Source: Nitrospirota bacterium (GTDB lineage Bacteria; Nitrospirota; Thermodesulfovibrionia; Thermodesulfovibrionales; UBA9159). From it: a stretch of DNA of 64,000 nucleotides. The position numbers and the translations under genes were made by a program. Below, piece by piece: positions 2,123 to 54,415 of the stretch (the first letter of the stretch is position 1; each line of letters begins with the position of its first letter). The notes below the pieces were generated by a model that saw only the letters and a list, made by a program, of their open reading frames with translations, was not told the origin of the DNA and did not search any database. Where the stretch lies: the NCBI GenBank assembly GCA_963699545.1, contig CAVOUE010000006.1:352001-416000 (forward strand). Reading direction: 5' to 3'.

Positions 2123-3418
2123 CAAGAGGGACGCGCCCCGTATGCCTATCATCAGATTCCTGCGGAGCGGGCAAAGCTAAAAAAGTCGATTGCTTTTGCA
2201 CAGATAGCGACTCACAATCACTTTGTATTTGACAAAGATGGCGCGGCCTTTAATGAAAAGGCGCCATTGATTAAGCTGGACAAAAGTGCTTCCGATGCTG
2301 ATCACCATTTACTGATGGGTTTCCTCAACTCGTCATCTGCACTCTTTTGGCTTCGCCAGGTTTGTTTCAGCAAGAGAGAGGCTGAAGTAGCTGAGAGCGG
2401 CACATATTATGAATTCGCCGGCGGCAAGGTTGAGCAATTGCCCGTGCCTGATGGGATCGCTCATTCCCTCGAAGGGAAGTCAGACAAGATATCCAACCGT
2501 CTTTCATTTCTCTCCGAGGAATGCTGGAAACGGGGCCAGAAGGTGCCTTCTCTTGGCATGAAAAAGCTTTTCGAAAAAAAAGGTGAGGCTTATGACAAAT
2601 GGAATCGCTCGTTGCCAGGGTACATTGCTCCTCATCCTTTGATCGCTGAGCCGTTTGCAGACGCTCCTTCACTCCAGGATGCGTATGCGAAAACGATCTC
2701 GGAACGTGAACTATTGCGTACTGAAATGATCGCGCTTCAGGAAGAAATGGACTGGCTTGTTTATGAGGCTTATGGTCTGATCGATAAGAAAGCAAAGTGC
2801 ACGATGGATTCGAATGAACTGCCCGAGCATTTGCCTCTAGGCCAGCGGCCCTTCGAGCTTTGGGCAGCGGCAGACGAAGATGTTGAAAAAGCGTGCGAGC
2901 TTATTCCGGCTGAATGGATCGCTTTGCGCCGGGAGCTCTGGAAGCAACGACTTGAAGTCATAAGAGACAACGAACATATCCGCAGGATAGAACAGCCTGT
3001 ATACAAGCGGCGGTGGTATCAGCCAGATTCTTATGAAAAACAGTTCACAAAAGCATTCGAATGGTGGCTCCTCGAAAAGGCCGAGTGGTGGCTTGAGAAC
3101 AAGAAAGCCGGCGGTCCTGTATCCCTTGAGGACTGGGCTGCGGCATTGTGGAAAGATGACAGGGTGCAAGCTGCTGCATCTGTTGTCGAAGGTAAGAGCC
3201 TCACCTTTGCCCTCTTCACCAAACTTTTCAAAAGTGTGATCAATTCCGAAACCGTCCCGGAAGGTATCCCCTTCGCAAAACCATGGGACGAACTCGAAGC
3301 CAAAGGGAAACTCCCGGCCAAGGTGAAAAACATCCGTGGCAAGCTCAACGTCCCCCGCGAACGCTTCCGCCTGCGCGGAAAAGACGAGTACCTCTGGGCT
3401 GGGTTAGATTGGAAATAG
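2123..3418 (+). pseudogene. 5'-truncated C-terminal part of a BREX-2 PglX-like adenine DNA methyltransferase
   Basis: Frame is open upstream of the listed TTG and reads IAFAQIATHNHFVFD...APLIKL, LNSS.ALFWL, LQEEMDWLVY..YGL, IEQPVYKRRW, RGKLNVPRERF; no SAM-binding or NPPY motifs; start coordinate approximate. Confidence 0.7.
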
Positions 3419-3432
3419 TTTTTCCGTACTGC

Positions 3433-3461
3433 TTGACAAAAGTTAACTCATAGGTTAATTT
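3433..3461 (+). promoter_or_regulatory. Putative promoter/operator of the TAC operon
   Basis: TTGACA(3433)-17 bp-TAATTT(3456); imperfect inverted repeat AAGTTAAC-N6-GTTAATTT; the -10 sits unusually close to the ATG at 3462. Confidence 0.45.
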
Positions 3462-3830
3462 ATGATTGACAGCGAGATAATTTACCGGGGGAGATGCTTT
3501 ACCATATCTGGCATTACGGTCAAAGGCATTTGCCTCGTCCAAGAATTCATAGAGGGACTGAACGAACCGGACAAGCAGAAGGTGTTGGCGCTTCTGCAGC
3601 GGTCCGCTGATAATGGACCGCCGAAAAATAAGGAAAAGTTTAATCATCTTAAAGATAAGATATTCGAGTTTAAGTCATACCAGATGAGGCTTCTTTGTTT
3701 TTTTGCGACGGATAAAGTGATACTTCTCACTCATGGTTTTATAAAGAAGAAGGACAAGACCCCCAGGGAAGAGATTGAAAGGGCCAAGAGTTTGAAGGCC
3801 TCATATCAACGAAGGGAGAGAAAAAAATGA
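3462..3830 (+). CDS. RelE/HigB-like (Gp49-like) toxin
   Basis: KFNHLKDKIFEFKSYQMRLLCFF...ILLTHGFIKKKDKTPREEIERAK signature. Confidence 0.85.
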   Translation: MIDSEIIYRGRCFTISGITVKGICLVQEFIEGLNEPDKQKVLALLQRSADNGPPKNKEKFNHLKDKIFEFKSYQMRLLCFFATDKVILLTHGFIKKKDKTPREEIERAKSLKASYQRRERKK

Positions 3831-4213
3831 AGACAGAACAGTGGTTCAACCGTTTGATTGACGAATACAGAGAGGACGCGGAGTTTCGGCTTGAGGGAAT
3901 AATCCTGGACTTTACCGAGAAGATTGTCGCTAAGATGGAAGAAAAAAAGGTCAGTCGGGCTGAACTCGCGAAAAGGCTTGGCGTTTCAAAGGCGTTCATA
4001 AGCAAGTTGCTCAATGGCAACCCGAACCTCACCATCAAGAGCATGATGTCCATCGCCGCTGCCCTCGGGTGCGACCTCAGCCTGGATATTTTCCCGAAAG
4101 GTTTTGAGGCGCGACATTTTTATGTCTGCACAAATAAAAATTTTGACGCAAGAAAATTTACGAAAGCGGTGAAGCCTATTATCGGGGAAGAAGTGAATGC
4201 AAGCGCTGCTTAA
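3827..4213 (+). CDS. XRE-HTH (HigA-like) antitoxin with C-terminal extension
   Basis: SRAELAKRLGVSKAFISKLLNGNPNLTIKSM HTH; ATGA overlap with toxin; ~40-aa aromatic-rich tail ending NASAA. Confidence 0.8.
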   Translation: MKTEQWFNRLIDEYREDAEFRLEGIILDFTEKIVAKMEEKKVSRAELAKRLGVSKAFISKLLNGNPNLTIKSMMSIAAALGCDLSLDIFPKGFEARHFYVCTNKNFDARKFTKAVKPIIGEEVNASAA

Positions 4214-48089: not shown

Positions 48090-49481
48090 TCACAGCTTCC
48101 TCTTAAACTCCAGCTTCAGGAACCTCTTTGTCCCCTCAGTTACCTTGAACCTCTCATCTCCCCTGTAGCCGGCGATCCAGACGATGTTGCCACCCGATAC
48201 AATGATCGGTATCGCATCCCGTTCATCTCTCGGCACCTTCTCATCCACAAAAAAGTCCTGGAGTTTCTTTTTTTTCCCGAATCCCAGAGGATAAAAGACG
48301 TCGCCCTTTTCCCTTGGTCTGACCGTAAGGAGGGCTCCCGCTTTATCTGCATCGAAAACCGCTTTGGTCTTTCCGTCCCCGGAGCTGTCAACTCTTTCCT
48401 CTGCGGACGCTACGATCGTAGCCCTGATCTCCTTCAAAACAACCTCTCCCGGCACGGTGAGAGTCAAGGCCTTCAGCCTTTGAGGAGGCTCCGATGTCAT
48501 CACCAAAGTCGAATAGGTCTTTACGACCCTCAACCCCTTTGGCAGGGAGAGCCTGTCTCCGTGCCTTCCTTTTTTTATCAGGTCGATTATGCCTTCAATG
48601 TGAATGAATTCCATGCCCCGAAGGCCCTTTGTCTCATCAATGGCCCGTCTCAAAACCCTTCTGAGGATGACCTTTTCCATCGACTCCATTGGTGTGAGAA
48701 AGAGTTCAATGCGGAGTTCAGTCTTTCTTGAAATCAGTTTCATAAGGGTCATCGTGACGATGAGATCAAAATATTTTTCCTCCTCCCTCAGCACGTCCAT
48801 GGTCCTTGATACCGTCCGGACGATACCCGGATTCATCTTCCTGATCACAGGCATTACCAGCAGCCTGAGCTTGTTCCTGAGGTAATCTTCCTTCACGTTC
48901 GACGAATCGACCATGAAATTGATTTGCTCTTCATCAAGAAAGGCCTCTATTTGGCTTCGCTCAATTTCTATGAGAGGCCTGATAATTCTCGCTCTCACCG
49001 GAGGTATGCCGCCGAGGCCCACGGGTCCCGATCCCCTGAAAAATCTCATAAGGAACGTCTCGACCTGGTCATCCGCGGTATGTCCCATGGCCAGACGGCT
49101 GGCCTTCAGGTCCGCGAAAACCTCATCGAATGCCTTATAACGCAGTTCCCGCGCAGCCTCCTGCTTGTTCATGCCCTGTTCCTTCGCATACGCCTTCACG
49201 TCAATGGATCGAACGATAAGGGGCACGGACAATCCATCGCAGAGTTTTCTGCAGAACGCTATCTCGTCAGGGGTCTCCCCGGGCCGTAACCCGTGATCTA
49301 CATACACGGCATGGAGCTTCGAGTGAAATTCATCCTTCAGCTTATGAAGGACGGTGAGGAGGCAGACGGAATCCGGCCCTCCCGAGAGGCCTACCAGGAC
49401 CATATCTCCCCTGGAGAGCATCGAGTACTTCGCGATCGTTGTTCTTACCTTTTCGATGAATGTATGTTTTTCCTGGGTCAT
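48090..49481 (-). CDS. tilS: tRNA(Ile)-lysidine synthetase
   Basis: SGGPDS, HGLR, AARELRY, HTADDQ.ET, DSSN..YLRNKLR. Confidence 0.95.
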   Translation of the reverse strand: MTQEKHTFIEKVRTTIAKYSMLSRGDMVLVGLSGGPDSVCLLTVLHKLKDEFHSKLHAVYVDHGLRPGETPDEIAFCRKLCDGLSVPLIVRSIDVKAYAKEQGMNKQEAARELRYKAFDEVFADLKASRLAMGHTADDQVETFLMRFFRGSGPVGLGGIPPVRARIIRPLIEIERSQIEAFLDEEQINFMVDSSNVKEDYLRNKLRLLVMPVIRKMNPGIVRTVSRTMDVLREEEKYFDLIVTMTLMKLISRKTELRIELFLTPMESMEKVILRRVLRRAIDETKGLRGMEFIHIEGIIDLIKKGRHGDRLSLPKGLRVVKTYSTLVMTSEPPQRLKALTLTVPGEVVLKEIRATIVASAEERVDSSGDGKTKAVFDADKAGALLTVRPREKGDVFYPLGFGKKKKLQDFFVDEKVPRDERDAIPIIVSGGNIVWIAGYRGDERFKVTEGTKRFLKLEFKRKL

Positions 49482-49608
49482 AAGGGTCAGAAGAAAATAA
49501 TATGCATCATAATTAATTCATAAATTATATCGCACGCGACATAATTTATGATAAGAAATTAATCTCTTTATCTTTCAATTGGTTAAATGAGGGCCAACTG
49601 CGATATTC

Positions 49609-49637
49609 TTGACACATCCTTCGAATTCCCCTAAAAT
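49609..49637 (+). promoter_or_regulatory. Strong sigma70 promoter heading the cassette array
   Basis: TTGACA-17 bp-TAAAAT. Confidence 0.7.
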
Positions 49638-49716
49638 CATCACAAAAAGACGTATGCGGCTCAAAAAAGAATGTTGCACGTAAATAAAATTAACTGCATA
49701 TAAAGACAAATAGAAA

Positions 49717-50226
49717 ATGAAGCCAATAAAGATGACCAAGGCAATGCTGCCAAATCTTCCTAATGAAGTTTTCGACATGTTTATCACACAAATAAATGAC
49801 ACCGACTCAAGCCCCTTTGATTCCATGCTCGGTGGCAGATGGTTTTACTATTTTGGAGAACTTACTATTGAGGCGTTCAATCAACTCCGGTGGATAAGAA
49901 CCACGCTTTCCTTCAAGGAGGCAATCTTTCATCCAACTTCGGGTAGCGACATCGATAGACTTGTCCATTATTGCAAACTTGAGGGCAAGCCGATAGCCAG
50001 GGCACTTTATCCAGGGTATCCCCCGGATTCCCCAGCCCGTCTCGCTGGGATCAAAGAAGTTATTATGAATACAGGACGGCTCCCTGCACCCATTGTAGCC
50101 ATAAGGACAGACAACGGCATCAGGGTTCTTGACGGTTGCCACAGGCTTGCCGCTGCTGTGTCTTGTCCGAACCCAGAAGATATACCTCTTGATGTATGGA
50201 TAGGCGAAAGACCAGAAAATAAATGA
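49717..50226 (+). CDS. Cassette-borne protein with ParB/Srx-like C-terminal motif
   Basis: LPAPIVA...VLDGCHRLAAA; stop codon followed 7 bp later by an attC. Confidence 0.65.
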   Translation: MKPIKMTKAMLPNLPNEVFDMFITQINDTDSSPFDSMLGGRWFYYFGELTIEAFNQLRWIRTTLSFKEAIFHPTSGSDIDRLVHYCKLEGKPIARALYPGYPPDSPARLAGIKEVIMNTGRLPAPIVAIRTDNGIRVLDGCHRLAAAVSCPNPEDIPLDVWIGERPENK

Positions 50227-50232
50227 AAGACC

Positions 50233-50320
50233 GTGCAACAAGAGGCTCGACCCGACTGTCGATAGCCCTGTGGCTTTCAGGTTACGCTTATTCTTCAGCG
50301 GGTCAGCCTTGGCGTTGTGG
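50233..50320 (+). other. Integron attC recombination site (complete)
   Basis: R'' GTGCAAC-5 bp-L'' GCT(C)GACC-CGAC...GCG-L' GGTCAGC-6 bp-R' GTTGTGG; L'' minus the extrahelical C is the exact complement of L'. Confidence 0.85.
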
Positions 50321-50383
50321 CGACAATATATTTAAATAACCTCCGGCAATACGTTATAATTTGGTCATAGCGGAGGTAAAAAT

Positions 50384-50587
50384 ATGAAGACAGAATTTAC
50401 TGCAATAATGAAACAGGCTGGAGAATGGTGGATCGAAGAAATTCCAGGCGTAAACTGTCAGGAACGTACACGTGAAGACTTAATTGAAACCCTTCGTCTT
50501 ACGCTTAAGGAAGCACTCGAATTTAACCGTCAAGACGCTATCGCCGCCGTAGGCTCAGGATACACAGAAGAAACAATCGCAGTATGA
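50384..50587 (+). CDS. HicB-family antitoxin (short form)
   Basis: GGAGG RBS; WWIEEIPGVNCQERTREDL; overlaps a hicA start. Confidence 0.75.
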   Translation: MKTEFTAIMKQAGEWWIEEIPGVNCQERTREDLIETLRLTLKEALEFNRQDAIAAVGSGYTEETIAV

Positions 50588-50676
50588 AACGCAGTGACCT
50601 GCTGAAATATCTGCGGTCACAAGGCTGTGAATTTATCAGAGAAGGTAGCCGTCACTCTTGGATGCTTTTTTGGTAA
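50584..50676 (+). pseudogene. Truncated HicA toxin
   Basis: MKRSDLLKYLRSQGCEFIREGSRHSW then stop after 30 aa; C-terminal half missing. Confidence 0.75.
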
Positions 50677-50690
50677 GCTGCCGGTTCCCC

Positions 50691-50713
50691 GCCGCTGAGT
50701 TCTCTCGTTAATA
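50691..50713 (+). other. 3' half of an attC site
   Basis: GCC-L' GCTGAGT-6 bp TCTCTC-R' GTTAATA; no matching R''/L'' upstream. Confidence 0.6.
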
Positions 50714-50766
50714 CCTACCCATACTTTTATATTGCTATCATTACATAGCTTTGGTATATTATAGCT

Positions 50767-51054
50767 ATGAAGAAGACACGCTTCGAATGGGACGATGAGA
50801 AAGATAAAGAAAATCAAATTAAACATACTGTTTCGTTTGCATTGGCTCAACGTGCTTTTCTCGATCCTCATCGTGTCATAGCGGAAGACGTCAGCCATAG
50901 CAGCGATGAAAAGAGATTTTACTGTATCGGTCGTGTCAGCGAAGGCATTATGACCGTCAGGTTTACTTATAGAGGAAATATCATCCGCATCTATGGTGCC
51001 GGATATTGGAGAAAAGGGAGGAAACTATATGAAGAGCAAAACAAAATATACTGA
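50767..51054 (+). CDS. BrnT-family toxin (cassette)
   Basis: FEWDDEKDKENQIKH.VSF, EKRFYCIG, TVRFTYR...IRIYGA. Confidence 0.88.
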   Translation: MKKTRFEWDDEKDKENQIKHTVSFALAQRAFLDPHRVIAEDVSHSSDEKRFYCIGRVSEGIMTVRFTYRGNIIRIYGAGYWRKGRKLYEEQNKIY

Positions 51055-51268
51055 TGAGCCGATGGGCAAGCTGAAAGTAATTAAAGACTTTCTTCCACCT
51101 CCGGAACAACTCGTCATGAAAGAAGAAAATGTAAAGGTGACCATTGCATTGAACAAATCAAGCATCGAGTTTTTCAAAAGAGAGGCGCAGCGTTACCATA
51201 CCTCGTATCAAAAAATGATTCGGCGGCTGATAGATTTATATGCCTCACACCATAAAAAGAGCGCTTAA
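51029..51268 (+). CDS. CopG/BrnA-like antitoxin (cassette)
   Basis: DFLPPPEQL...KVTIAL...FFK...YQKMIR; TAA overlaps the attC R'' box. Confidence 0.82.
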   Translation: MKSKTKYTDEPMGKLKVIKDFLPPPEQLVMKEENVKVTIALNKSSIEFFKREAQRYHTSYQKMIRRLIDLYASHHKKSA

Positions 51269-51293
51269 CACTTATAAGGCCCCCCGCTGTCAA

Positions 51294-51800
51294 GAGAAAA
51301 AGCGTTCCTAATCGGAAATCAGAATAAAGACATTTCCTTAATGTTCTTCAGATTGCCGGTGAGTTCCGACTTGGTTTCCGAAAGCGGCGTCAGATCAATA
51401 TCTGCACCAAACACTTATCGAGGCTCGATAGCCGGTCAGCACGGAACAATGTATCAATTCCGTACTGCCGACGACAGTGGAGAGACCAATCGGTCTTGTT
51501 CTCCACGGCCTGGAAACAATTCAGAACCCTTATACCGTCCTCATCAAAGGTCTGGTTCATCCCGACTAATCGGGATCCTCCAGTTAGTATCAGGCTCGGG
51601 TAAGGGGCAGAACCTGTAACAATCTTTTATGTCTTATAGAGACCGGGCGTCCTAATCAAAAAAGATAGGCGCCGGGTATCGCATTCCATGATGCCCTATC
51701 CATGATCGAAGCCATATACAAAGGCATGTTCTAAAGAGCATCCGTCGGACTTAACCCTAATGGCGCCAGTTAGACGCAACAGGCTCACCCGGTCCCAGCC
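51294..51800 (-). ncRNA. Candidate bridge/seek RNA in the non-coding right end (boundaries unknown)
   Basis: ~0.5 kb without a credible ORF downstream of the recombinase; repeated GAGCCT..TGG and TTGAT..GACG scaffold units; segments matching target and donor sequences. Confidence 0.65.
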
Positions 51801-52844
51801 TTATTTCGCAAAGAAGACTTCTGGATGAAACACCTCTTTTCTTTTCAGGATATGATAGGCAGCCCTCGCAAGCTTATGTGCCAAAATGGTCAGGGACTTC
51901 GCCTTGCCGTGCTTCCTTGCCAGTTTGTCCCGATACTTTACCGCTTCGGGGTTTCTCCTGAGGAAAAGAACGGCTGCTTCTGAGAAGGCCCATTTAAGAT
52001 GTGCATTGCCGATCTTCTTGCCCGAGGTGCCGAGTTTCTTGCCTGCCGACTCCTTGGCGGATTTAACAAGTCTGCAGTATGAGACGAAATCCTGCACTCT
52101 GGGGAAGCGGTCGATATCGTGAATCTCATAGAGAATGACCAGGCCGAGGATTCTTCCTATACCGGGTATGGAGCGAAGACGGAAATAGGAATCGGCATCA
52201 TCGACCTTTGCGATAAGGGATATCTCATGTTCAACACGGTGAAGCAGTTGATCATAGTGGTCTATGAGGCCAAGATCCAGTTCGATGCTCTTTTGGACAC
52301 TCATGTCGGTGAACCGTTCGGCCAAGCCTTCGCGGTTGCCTTTCTTTCCGATATTCTTCCCTATCTCCGGAAGGTTGTATTGATGATTGGTGTTTTGCAC
52401 ATGGGCAAGGAGTTCGGCCCGCTTGCGGACAAGGTGCAACCTTCTTCTCAAGAGATCCCTCGTGGACCGCATTTCGGAAGGGTAGACATACGCCATAGGC
52501 ATCATGCCGCCCCTTAGCAGCACCGCTATCTTATGAGCGTCTACCTTGTCGTTTTTGGCTTTGCCTCCGTGGATGGCTTTCATGTACAGGGCATGGCCCA
52601 GGACAAACGGGATATTCTCCTTATTGCAGAGATCGGCGATCCAGTACCAGGTGAAGATGCATTCTACGGCCACGACAATGTCCTCACGATACGGCGCGAT
52701 AGTCTTAAGGAAGATGTCGGGATTTGTTTTGATGTCCCGGTGCAGAACGATTCTTCCCTCCTGATTGAGGATGCAAAGGTACATGGTCTTGGCATGCAGA
52801 TCGATTCCGCAAGAAAATTTGTGCTGCTTGGTGTAAAATCTCAT
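51801..52844 (-). CDS. IS110-family DEDD recombinase/transposase
   Basis: AGGAGG RBS; GIDLH, VAVE, KNDKVDA, SIPGIG, ESAGK, GNAHLKWAF; intact 347 aa. Confidence 0.95.
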   Translation of the reverse strand: MRFYTKQHKFSCGIDLHAKTMYLCILNQEGRIVLHRDIKTNPDIFLKTIAPYREDIVVAVECIFTWYWIADLCNKENIPFVLGHALYMKAIHGGKAKNDKVDAHKIAVLLRGGMMPMAYVYPSEMRSTRDLLRRRLHLVRKRAELLAHVQNTNHQYNLPEIGKNIGKKGNREGLAERFTDMSVQKSIELDLGLIDHYDQLLHRVEHEISLIAKVDDADSYFRLRSIPGIGRILGLVILYEIHDIDRFPRVQDFVSYCRLVKSAKESAGKKLGTSGKKIGNAHLKWAFSEAAVLFLRRNPEAVKYRDKLARKHGKAKSLTILAHKLARAAYHILKRKEVFHPEVFFAK

Positions 52845-53026
52845 TTGAGGCCTCCTATGGGAAAAGGTTTTGGGTCCCTGAATCATACCTGCTTCGGGTA
52901 TGGTTCAGGGGGGCCTTAATGAGTATCAATTAAATCCGCGGGACGGGCAATGGCCCGCCCGTGATTTAACGCGTTGGACGGAACTGGGAAAAGAAAGGAG
53001 AACAGAAGACCCAGTGCACGTGTTGG

Positions 53027-53062
53027 TCTGATACAAACTCTGATACAAACTCTGAAACAAAC
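53027..53062. repeat. Three 12-bp tandem repeats
   Basis: TCTGATACAAAC x2 plus TCTGAAACAAAC directly before the cupin RBS. Confidence 0.85.
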
Positions 53063-53076
53063 AAGGAGGTGAACAA

Positions 53077-53427
53077 ATGATATCAAAGCCAATGATACAG
53101 GATGCTATTGTAACAGATGGGGATAAGTATTCGGTTGTTCTGGAAAACGAACGCGTTAGGGTGCTCAGATACCACGATACGCCGGGGGACAGAACTTCGC
53201 AACACGCTCACCCCGACTACGTATTGTACGCGGAGTCTTCTTTCAAGCGGCGTTTGACATTTCCTGATGGTCAGAAGCGTGAGGTCGACGTCAAAGCGGG
53301 GAGTGTCGTTTGGATGAAAGGGCATACACACATCGGCGAGAACATAGGAGATACGAATACTGACGTAGTAATTGTGGAACTGAAAGAGAACAGAACGTTA
53401 GACAAGACGGAGAAGAATCTGAAATAA
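53077..53427 (+). CDS. Small cupin-fold protein (cassette)
   Basis: AGGAGG RBS; LENERVRVL...PGDRT..HAHP...H.GEN.G.T....VELK. Confidence 0.8.
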   Translation: MISKPMIQDAIVTDGDKYSVVLENERVRVLRYHDTPGDRTSQHAHPDYVLYAESSFKRRLTFPDGQKREVDVKAGSVVWMKGHTHIGENIGDTNTDVVIVELKENRTLDKTEKNLK

Positions 53428-53452
53428 GCGCGTCAGGCAACTAAACGCTACG

Positions 53453-54415
53453 TTAGCCCACTTCAAGGCCATACTGCCTTATCAGTCTCAGGTCGTCATC
53501 ATAGGGCGTTCCCGCTGTTGTGAGATAATTTCCGGTCAGCAGTGAATCGGCCCCTGCCATGAAGACCATTGAATTGAACTCTCCAAGCGTTTGCCTCCTC
53601 CCTCCGCACACCCGTATCTCCTTTTGAGGGAGTGCGAACCGGTAAAGGCTGATGATCTTCAGGGCATCAAAGGGATGCAAGGGAACCCTGTCCTCCATCG
53701 CTGTTCCCTTGACCGCGATGAGAAAATTAATGGGGACGGAATCCACATCAAGCTCTCTCAGCGCCTGCGCCATCTCTATCCTGTCCTGCCACGACTCACC
53801 GATGCCGAATATACCCCCGGAGCAGAGGGAAAGACCAATGGATTTTGCAGCCATGATCGTCCTTGTCTTGTCCGCATAGGTGTGGGTCGAACAGATCTCA
53901 GGGAAGAACCTCTCCGAAGCTTCAAGGTTATGGTGATACCGCACCAGACCGCTGTCCCTGAGCATCGACAGTTCATCCTTCTCGAGAAGGCCGAGGGTCG
54001 CGCAGGGAAGGAGACCGAGCCCCCGGACCTTTCCGATCATCGAAGCTATCTCCTTCAGCTCTCCCTTGCCCGCCTTCCTTCCGCTGGTGACGATGCAGAA
54101 CCTCTTCACCCCGGCCTCTTTCGCTTCTCTGGCTTTTTCCAATACAGCGCTTTCATTCACAAGGGGATGCACGGGGACATCGGCTTTGCTCTTTGATGAC
54201 TGTGCACAATAGGAACAGTCTTCGGAACATGCGCCCGATTTGGCGTTTATGATGGAGCAGAGATCAACGCTGCTTCCCCTGTATCTTTCCCGTATTTTGC
54301 AGGCCGCGGCAAAGAGCTGAAAGAGCTCACTGCCTGCGAGGGAAGCAATGTGGGACAGGTCGCCTCCGGAAGGCACGTCGCCTGCCAATACTTTCTCTGT
54401 GAGCCTGTCTATCAT
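53453..54415 (-). CDS. bioB: Biotin synthase
   Basis: CSEDCSYCAQS, YHHNLE, CSGGIFG.GE, VPINFL, GNYLTT. Confidence 0.95.
   Translation of the reverse strand: MIDRLTEKVLAGDVPSGGDLSHIASLAGSELFQLFAAACKIRERYRGSSVDLCSIINAKSGACSEDCSYCAQSSKSKADVPVHPLVNESAVLEKAREAKEAGVKRFCIVTSGRKAGKGELKEIASMIGKVRGLGLLPCATLGLLEKDELSMLRDSGLVRYHHNLEASERFFPEICSTHTYADKTRTIMAAKSIGLSLCSGGIFGIGESWQDRIEMAQALRELDVDSVPINFLIAVKGTAMEDRVPLHPFDALKIISLYRFALPQKEIRVCGGRRQTLGEFNSMVFMAGADSLLTGNYLTTAGTPYDDDLRLIRQYGLEVG

Follow-up and report, generated by a model that had tools for sequence, protein, structure and literature searches.

A group of IS1111-type insertion sequences that settle in integron attC sites, the IS1111-attC group with ISPa21, ISPst6, ISKpn4 and ISPa25, was reportedly described by Tetu and Holmes in 2008 and by Post and Hall in 2009. 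Its record goes back to 2008, according to citations in PMC3001079 and PMC11187229. In excerpts from Léon and Roy (PMC3001079), ISPa21 and ISPst6 are placed in one monophyletic subgroup, IS1111-attC, and the elements of this type are located near the 5' end of attC and antisense to the cassettes, and in excerpts from Siddiquee et al. (PMC11187229) the downstream non-coding regions of ISKpn4, ISPst6 and ISPa25 are reported to encode a seekRNA. The DNA analyzed here is a stretch of 64,000 nucleotides (the window) from an uncultured Nitrospirota bacterium (assembly GCA_963699545.1, contig CAVOUE010000006.1, positions 352,001 to 416,000). An initial annotation of it had stated that IS110-family elements are RNA-guided and that attC-targeting IS1111 members exist, which agrees with what these papers say of ISKpn4, ISPst6 and ISPa25. 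The window contains an IS1111-type insertion sequence of 1.66 kb and of the RNA-guided kind, which sits exactly at the R'' end of an integron attC. Taken jointly, the evidence is read as an IS1111-type RNA-guided element that homes into attC, lies antisense to the cassettes, excises as a circle and has split the brnA-side attC of a toxin-antitoxin (TA) cassette, and to this reading we give a probability of roughly 88%. Chance is excluded as the origin of the fit between element and attC by a second copy, by empty sites in related genomes and by a family-wide pattern.

Counted in window coordinates, the element starts with its right end and finishes with its left end. The limits of the element proper were set at 51271-52926 because the edges of identity with the second copy, together with the ends of relatives, show which bases are the element's own (Table 1). 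The initial annotation had described 11-bp subterminal inverted repeats, a CA core at both ends at the boundary between R'' box and spacer, and the restoration of an attC upon removal of 51271-52928; repeats and cores were found as described, and the stretch to be removed corresponds to the element plus one copy of the CA core. The repeats form a perfect 11-bp pair, within the approximately 11-13 bp expected of the IS1111 group. Exclusive of the CA core, the left terminal extension measures 8 nt and the right one 4 nt; adding the core to either end gives 10/4 or 8/6. In transposase orientation, the left end consists of N-TG-ATACTCAT and then the inverted repeat, and the right end of inverted repeat-TAAG-TG-TTRRRY. 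The non-coding DNA amounts to 532 nt 3' of the transposase gene and to about 80 nt upstream of it, and this trait of the IS1111 group is therefore present.

The minus-strand open reading frame (ORF) 51801-52886 matches the Pfam families PF01548 (DEDD_Tnp_IS110, E 1.9e-14) and PF02371 (E 1.4e-19) and scores 203.6 bits (cut-off 140) with the NCBIfam model NF033542, "IS110 family RNA-guided transposase". The N-terminal DEDD/RuvC-like domain and the C-terminal Tnp domain that together define the IS110 superfamily are both present. Among the best 120 matches listed, homologues are mostly 346-348 aa long and cover the query in full; the second ATG of the frame (52844), which is preceded by GGAGG, is therefore preferred as start codon and most likely gives an intact gene of 347 aa. 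Such a full-length minus-strand gene, facing cassettes on the plus strand, is what had been described as an intact DEDD recombinase oriented against the array. The C-terminal domain can be aligned to the structure of the IS621 recombinase (8wt6, E 1.7e-8); an NDKVDA stretch lines up with the D102/D105 stretch of IS621 in a weak segment of the alignment, and the position of the catalytic serine is ambiguous.

A search of the whole genome with the element returned exactly two matches, both 100% identical, namely the copy in the window and a copy on contig C3. Their identity spans window positions 51267-52929 and ends there, and the flanks are unrelated. Copy 2 is flanked by GCCCAAC-A on one side and by GTTGGTT 29 nt further on the other side, and its target is read as an eroded attC. 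Collecting other copies with their flanks had been proposed as a check of the attC target, and it gave a favorable outcome, as copy 2 has the R''-like GCCCAAC-A and relatives share the ends and GTTRRRY-like flanks. That two identical copies stand between different flanks speaks for recent movement. Contigs from wetland and sediment metagenomes contain relatives at 90-99% identity, whose matches end at 51265/51266 and 52929 and are followed by other sequence. The proposal that the element is likely active is backed by two identical copies and by intact gene and ends, whereas a circle junction and an excision product were not seen; activity is plausible. Copy 2 (L002) lies between a CAP12/Pycsar-type TIR-domain gene (312-1469, E 1.2e-17) and a pair formed by HigB and a helix-turn-helix antitoxin (HigA; 3339-3929), and a defence and TA neighborhood is common to copy 2 and copy 1.

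The brnT/brnA cassette whose attC is interrupted in the window was found in 49 of 301 genomes of the same order, the own genome counted, and five such loci were inspected (L093, L094, L095, L096 and L097). In L093 and L094, the end of brnA (...GCTTAACA) runs directly into an unbroken attC, and in L096 and L097 the sequence past the end of brnA could not be read as attC. At L105, in another genome of the same order, one contiguous stretch (...CTTAACAATTAAATCC...) joins the equivalent of window 51254-51270 (16/17 bases) to that of 52929-52967. Because its flanks are contiguous across the junction and contain one CA, L105 is the empty site that the initial annotation had expected, and its claim of a precise insertion into attC stands on this natural uninterrupted site and on the unbroken attC sites in L093 and L094. 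Sites in L105 and L106 are 88-89% identical to the remaining part of the attC in the window, and L104 is a regular array in which small cassettes are parted by attC sites of the same family. In L095 (G043:C143, about 845-875), no more than the first 11-12 nt of the element's right end stand behind the end of brnA, the R'' box and CA, whereupon the sequence jumps, via a shared GGCCC, to the equivalent of window 52952-52967 (16/16), the L' arm of attC, leaving about 1.67 kb less than in the window. Judging from its sequence, L095 carries a deletion scar left by the same element at this same attC. With empty sites, an occupied site and this scar, the attC of one cassette documents a cycle of infection and decay at single-site resolution.

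Relatives were studied as 79 loci from other genomes, which with the two own copies make 81 sequences. The left-end motif and the inverted-repeat pair were found in 74 of the 81, and TG stands directly outside the left extension in 62 of these 74, in a search that did not require TG. In a gap-free alignment of 47 distinct, preselected right ends, the core is TG in 43, GG in 3 and AG in 1, and TT follows the core in 47/47; the six bases past the core read TTRRRY in 24/45 and start with TTA or TTG in 39/45. When the 20 nt before the left end were examined for an upstream partner strand of -15 kcal/mol or lower beside AAC, 27 of 52 elements had one as compared to 80 of 1085 control TGTT sites (median pairing energy -19.8 versus -12.0), these control sites being taken from the same loci and arrays and possibly including true attC sites. 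Identical single-base bulges recur, in one register, in many of the flank structures. On plasmids of Vibrio campbellii, Alteromonas and Pseudoalteromonas, relatives at 54% identity have the same ends and flanks of the GTTAGGT or GTTATGT type. An integron integrase (TIGR02249) over the cut-off was detected in three of the five relatives' genomes tested. In G003, one of the three, a stop-ridden piece of intI (C1:1155265-1155768) lies about 2 kb from the element at L030, and in G002, which gave no integrase match at the cut-off, intI pieces (C4:148772-151187) lie about 20 kb from L021, both distances assuming that contig numbers match the named records. The right-end core of L020, L025 and L039 is GG and not TG, while their left end and internal guide copy keep TG, and this may be the trace of an insertion at a target with a mismatched core. 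On contig C41 of G004, a 311-aa tyrosine-recombinase frame occurs at about 25 places with identical scores (103 and 89 bits with the integron-integrase model, below cut-off) and probably belongs to a multi-copy mobile element.

Table 1. Features of the insertion sequence, of the attC that it splits and of the adjoining cassettes (window coordinates).
Feature	Positions	Length	Strand	Basis or remark
Insertion sequence proper	51271-52926	1656 bp	minus	second identical copy, empty site, ends kept in relatives
Left CA core (TG in transposase orientation)	51269-51270			identity edge between both copies; TG in 43/47 relatives' right ends
Right CA core	52927-52928			identity edge between both copies; TG directly before left-end extension in 62/74 relatives
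Right-end subterminal inverted repeat TAAGGCCCCCC	51275-51285	11 bp		4 nt inside core
Left-end subterminal inverted repeat GGGGGGCCTTA	52908-52918	11 bp		8 nt inside core
TTGACA, -35-like hexamer pointing out of right end	51288-51293		minus	TTGAC throughout alignment of 47 relatives
Guide-like segment GAUAAGUG-UUUGG	51407-51419		minus	sense of own right end plus core, then near-copy of R'' complement
Second conserved CUAACUGG block	51581-51588		minus	kept in relatives
First structured loop of predicted non-coding RNA	51641-51795		minus	outer stem 51787-51795 with 51641-51649
DEDD/IS110-family transposase gene	51801-52844	347 aa	minus	profile matches, homologue lengths; longer open frame reaches 52886
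Unbroken attC of preceding cassette (ORF 49717-50226), GTGCAAC ... GTTGTGG	50233-50320		plus
brnT of upstream cassette	50767-51054		plus	Pfam BrnT_toxin E 7.7e-20
brnA-like antitoxin gene	51029-51268		plus	Pfam BrnA_antitoxin E 2.7e-4, under gathering score
attC R'' box GCTTAAC (RYYYAAC)	51263-51269		plus	sequence; same box and unbroken attC in L093, L094, L105
Remainder of split attC (spacer A, L''-loop-L' hairpin with bulged bases, R' box)	52929-52979		plus

The 532-nt region downstream of the transposase gene is conserved block-wise across the family. In the first structured loop of the predicted RNA, which begins at the stop codon of the gene, the outer stem has compensatory changes at 8/8 pairs with 86.8% of cells paired, the distal hairpin is paired in 93.8% of cells and a less certain inner stem in 72%, as compared to 34-52% for slid controls. 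Between these stems, the 5' side of the loop contains an invariant CUAAC (51769-51773), which is complementary to GTTAG on the target strand, the complement of the R'' box. On its 3' side, a variable stretch ending in UUG is followed by AUU(A/G)G, here ...UUG-AUUAGGA (51650-51659), and this ...YUUG stretch has the sense of the L''-side flank plus the TG core. Over eight positions, the ...YUUG segment agrees with the left flank of its own element at 3.42 on average and with the flanks of other lineages at 2.62 (p 4e-4), the best fits being 7/8 in L053 and L063. The second guide-like segment, GAUAAGUG-UUUGG, contains an internal 7-mer that covaries with the right end: it is identical to the 7-mer at that end in 39 of 46 relatives (mean 17.9 and maximum 27 in 2000 shuffles) and in 15 of the 20 whose end is not the majority one; fixed alignment columns and a stricter motif were used for this comparison. 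A hairpin with compensatory changes follows. The predicted layout, in which a segment for one strand lies 5', a segment for the other strand lies 3' and both overlap at the core, matches that of bridge and seek RNAs, whose segment order and overlap at the core are given in excerpts from PMC11208160 and PMC11187229. A blastn search of plasmids with the non-coding region gave no match. Two further candidates were rejected as guides, namely a hairpin loop with 9 nt matching the left junction, a match not conserved in relatives, and UGAUAC before the second CUAAC block, which does not track the left end in relatives. An all-against-all covariation scan with wobble pairs was also set aside because most of its signal was noise from invariant G columns, above which the right-end position alone rose.

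The insertion point is the boundary between R'' box and spacer, near the 5' end of the attC, with the transposase on the minus strand and the cassettes on the plus strand. The brnA-like gene, whose start at 51029 was picked by eye and is preceded by GGGAGG, has its TAA stop (51266-51268) inside the R'' box. On the other side of the element, an imperfect hairpin with bulged bases (52930-52969) folds with -16.1 kcal/mol and a z of -3.75, and the R' box reads GTTGGAC (GTTRRRY; 52973-52979). Once split, this attC could presumably no longer fold and so would be unusable by an integrase, and the insertion would lock the upstream TA cassette in place; the downstream cassette would suffer equally. An immobilization of cassettes by such insertions has already been suggested for ISPa21 (excerpts from PMC11616780). 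The unbroken attC that belongs to the preceding cassette folds with its R boxes paired and with bulged bases, and this site was also retrieved by a loose attC scan. Downstream of it, a hicB-like ORF (67 aa, no family match) is followed by a hicA that was recognized by eye and is cut off at about 30 codons (window 50384-50680). The local array looks decayed, a recognizable attC being absent between this hicB/hicA-like pair and brnT. Past the split attC, an ORF of 116 aa (53077-53427, no family match) is followed by AGGCAAC and GTTAGCC, 10 nt apart and hairpin-free between them (53428-53452), and this pair could be a vestigial attC or chance; its GTTAGCC overlaps the stop codon of an adjoining minus-strand gene, bioB by eye. 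A strict test of R''/R' complementarity and our own loose attC scans, genome-wide (26 scattered matches among 630 sites) and local, were unspecific; the strict test, which was dropped, accepted 18/50 elements and 290/1100 controls and missed both own copies. An Rfam search of positions 49000-54000 at E<=1 gave only a chance match to RNA-OUT (E 0.9).

From these observations and from the family, the following sequence of events can be proposed. The element would excise as a circle, whose joined ends would create a promoter for the transposase. The TTGACA at the right end may be one half of such a promoter, to be completed by the left end only in the circle, in analogy to the junction promoters known for ISEc11 (excerpts from PMC11187229). 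The 532-nt downstream region would provide the structured bridge or seek RNA used by the DEDD/serine recombinase, for which the conserved folding described above gives partial support. One loop of this RNA would set CUAAC against GTTAG, the complement of the R'' box, and would use the lineage-specific ...YUUG for the L''-side flank and the TG core, and in a second region the right end of the element itself, core included, would be copied. The shared TG (CA on the window strand) would be the point of recombination, which would place the element between R'' box and spacer, with the core on both sides and always antisense to the cassettes. In the present genome, the element has split the attC of the BrnT/BrnA cassette and was also copied, not long ago, into a second site that is attC-like.

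Several findings weigh against this interpretation. The extensions of 8 and 4 nt differ from the 7 and 3 stated for the IS1111 family in excerpts from PMC11187229. Copy 2 has a target whose hairpin is weak (-4.4 kcal/mol, z -0.77), though R boxes and the L''-side motif are present. For the element in question, the ...YUUG segment fits the two flanks poorly (3/8 and 2/8), CUAAC is invariant across the family, so that covariation with the target says nothing about its pairing, and no segment complementary to the left end was found in the non-coding region. In the own genome, an 87%-complete assembly, no integron integrase scored over the cut-off, the best match reaching 70.8 bits versus 265. Among Logan contigs, from other samples and with shares of <=0.19, none skips the element or joins its ends. 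As to the family-wide counts, the 47 right ends had been preselected by an NG-then-T pattern, with eight rows removed by eye and two duplicates taken out, and related sequences are not independent, so shuffle controls overstate significance.

Some of these points would be expected from an ordinary IS110-family insertion into a short linear target near palindromes, for which the association with attC would be incidental: no match in the genome reaches the cut-off for an integron integrase, the nearby array is short and shows decay, copy 2 has a weakly folding target and the loose attC scans are unspecific. Such an incidental association is very improbable, given that RYYYAAC and GTTRRRY boxes together with bulged hairpins in the same register flank many relatives, that relatives' genomes contain integron integrases, with one decayed intI about 2 kb from a copy, and that in G249 small cassettes alternate regularly with attC sites of the same family. 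The two copies might also be inert relics, identical owing to a recent segmental duplication or to an assembly artefact. This is unlikely, as their identity ends exactly at the ends of the element while the flanks are unrelated, as gene, both repeats and conserved RNA blocks are intact, and as contigs from other samples carry relatives at 90-99% that end at 51265/51266 and 52929 next to different flanks; nevertheless, the assembly is a metagenome-derived genome of 13 contigs with 5% contamination, evidence for a circle or an empty site was not found in contigs of other samples, and L095 shows such insertions decaying to scars.

Alternatively, the folded single-stranded attC hairpin could be recognized as a structure, in the manner of an integrase, with no RNA guide reading its sequence. 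The targets are indeed alike in structure more than in sequence and the match of the putative left-flank guide is weak for this element, but the target of copy 2 was used despite its poor folding, and conservation among the targets lies in the R'' box, to which an invariant segment of the RNA is complementary. In addition, the lineage-specific segments that resemble guides agree more closely with their own flanks than with flanks from other lineages, and dependence on a seekRNA has been demonstrated for ISKpn4 and ISPst6 (excerpts from PMC11187229), so that recognition of structure alone appears distinctly unlikely. An RNA-guided IS1111-type element homing into attC thus remains the preferred interpretation.

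Insertion sequences that home into attC have so far come mainly from Pseudomonas and clinical class 1 integrons, and the element and its relatives show that uncultured bacteria of many phyla, from soil, sediment and marine habitats, are parasitized in this way as well. The conserved RNA blocks that match the core of attC offer a concrete and testable guide layout for the IS1111 type at a degenerate and structured target. At least 8000 protein clusters match the transposase at E<=1e-20, with hosts from Nitrospirota to marine Gammaproteobacteria. A bolder view, which we put forward tentatively and consider rather doubtful, is that the element belongs to a lineage of attC-homing IS1111 elements that is very widespread in the environment and stands apart from, and independent of, the Pseudomonas clade. 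The RNA of such elements would read degenerate attC sites by setting the invariant CUAAC and UUUGG against GTTRRRY (G-U being tolerated), and a lineage-specific segment would choose among attC subfamilies. If this were true, attC homing would have arisen or spread far beyond its described range, and element scars would be a common route by which cassette arrays decay.

Among described systems, the IS1111-attC group resembles the present element most closely, and insertion near the R'' end of attC and antisense to the cassettes (excerpts from PMC3001079) as well as subterminal repeats of the IS1111 type and a long 3' non-coding region (excerpts from PMC11187229) are shared. Their target is read by the downstream non-coding RNA (excerpts from PMC11187229), whereas the RNA is predicted from sequence here. 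The host in our case is an uncultured Nitrospirota, and, compared by description, position and orientation of the insertion agree with those of the reference elements. ISPst6 measures about 1513 bp (from coordinates in excerpts of PMC11187229) versus 1656 bp here, the extensions here comprise 8 and 4 nt besides the CA core, as opposed to 7 and 3 nt in the same source, and the best matches on Pseudomonas and Klebsiella plasmids are 33% and 27.5% identical, in a plasmid collection that may not contain the reference elements. ISEc11 and ISPa11, also compared by description, likewise have subterminal inverted repeats and a downstream non-coding region, which in their case gives a seekRNA, and a circle intermediate with a junction promoter (both from excerpts of PMC11187229), the latter being only inferred for the present element; in contrast, they target a short linear site and REP sequences and not attC. 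With IS621, the element shares DEDD and Tnp domains and a core dinucleotide common to donor and target; IS621 has RNA loops each holding one guide per strand (excerpts from PMC11208160), which the guide-like layout deduced here from sequence recalls. However, the RNA of IS621 lies upstream of the gene, long subterminal repeats are lacking, its core is CT, and its strand-specific segment order is reversed in IS1111 types (excerpts from PMC11187229). Group IIC-attC introns occupy the same niche, the 5' part of attC and antisense to the array (excerpts from PMC3001079), but these retroelements, which possess a ribozyme and a reverse transcriptase, use an unrelated mechanism. The homing of IS1111 elements into attC is already known, and the present case, which leaves the accepted picture unchanged, comes from an uncultured environmental bacterium.

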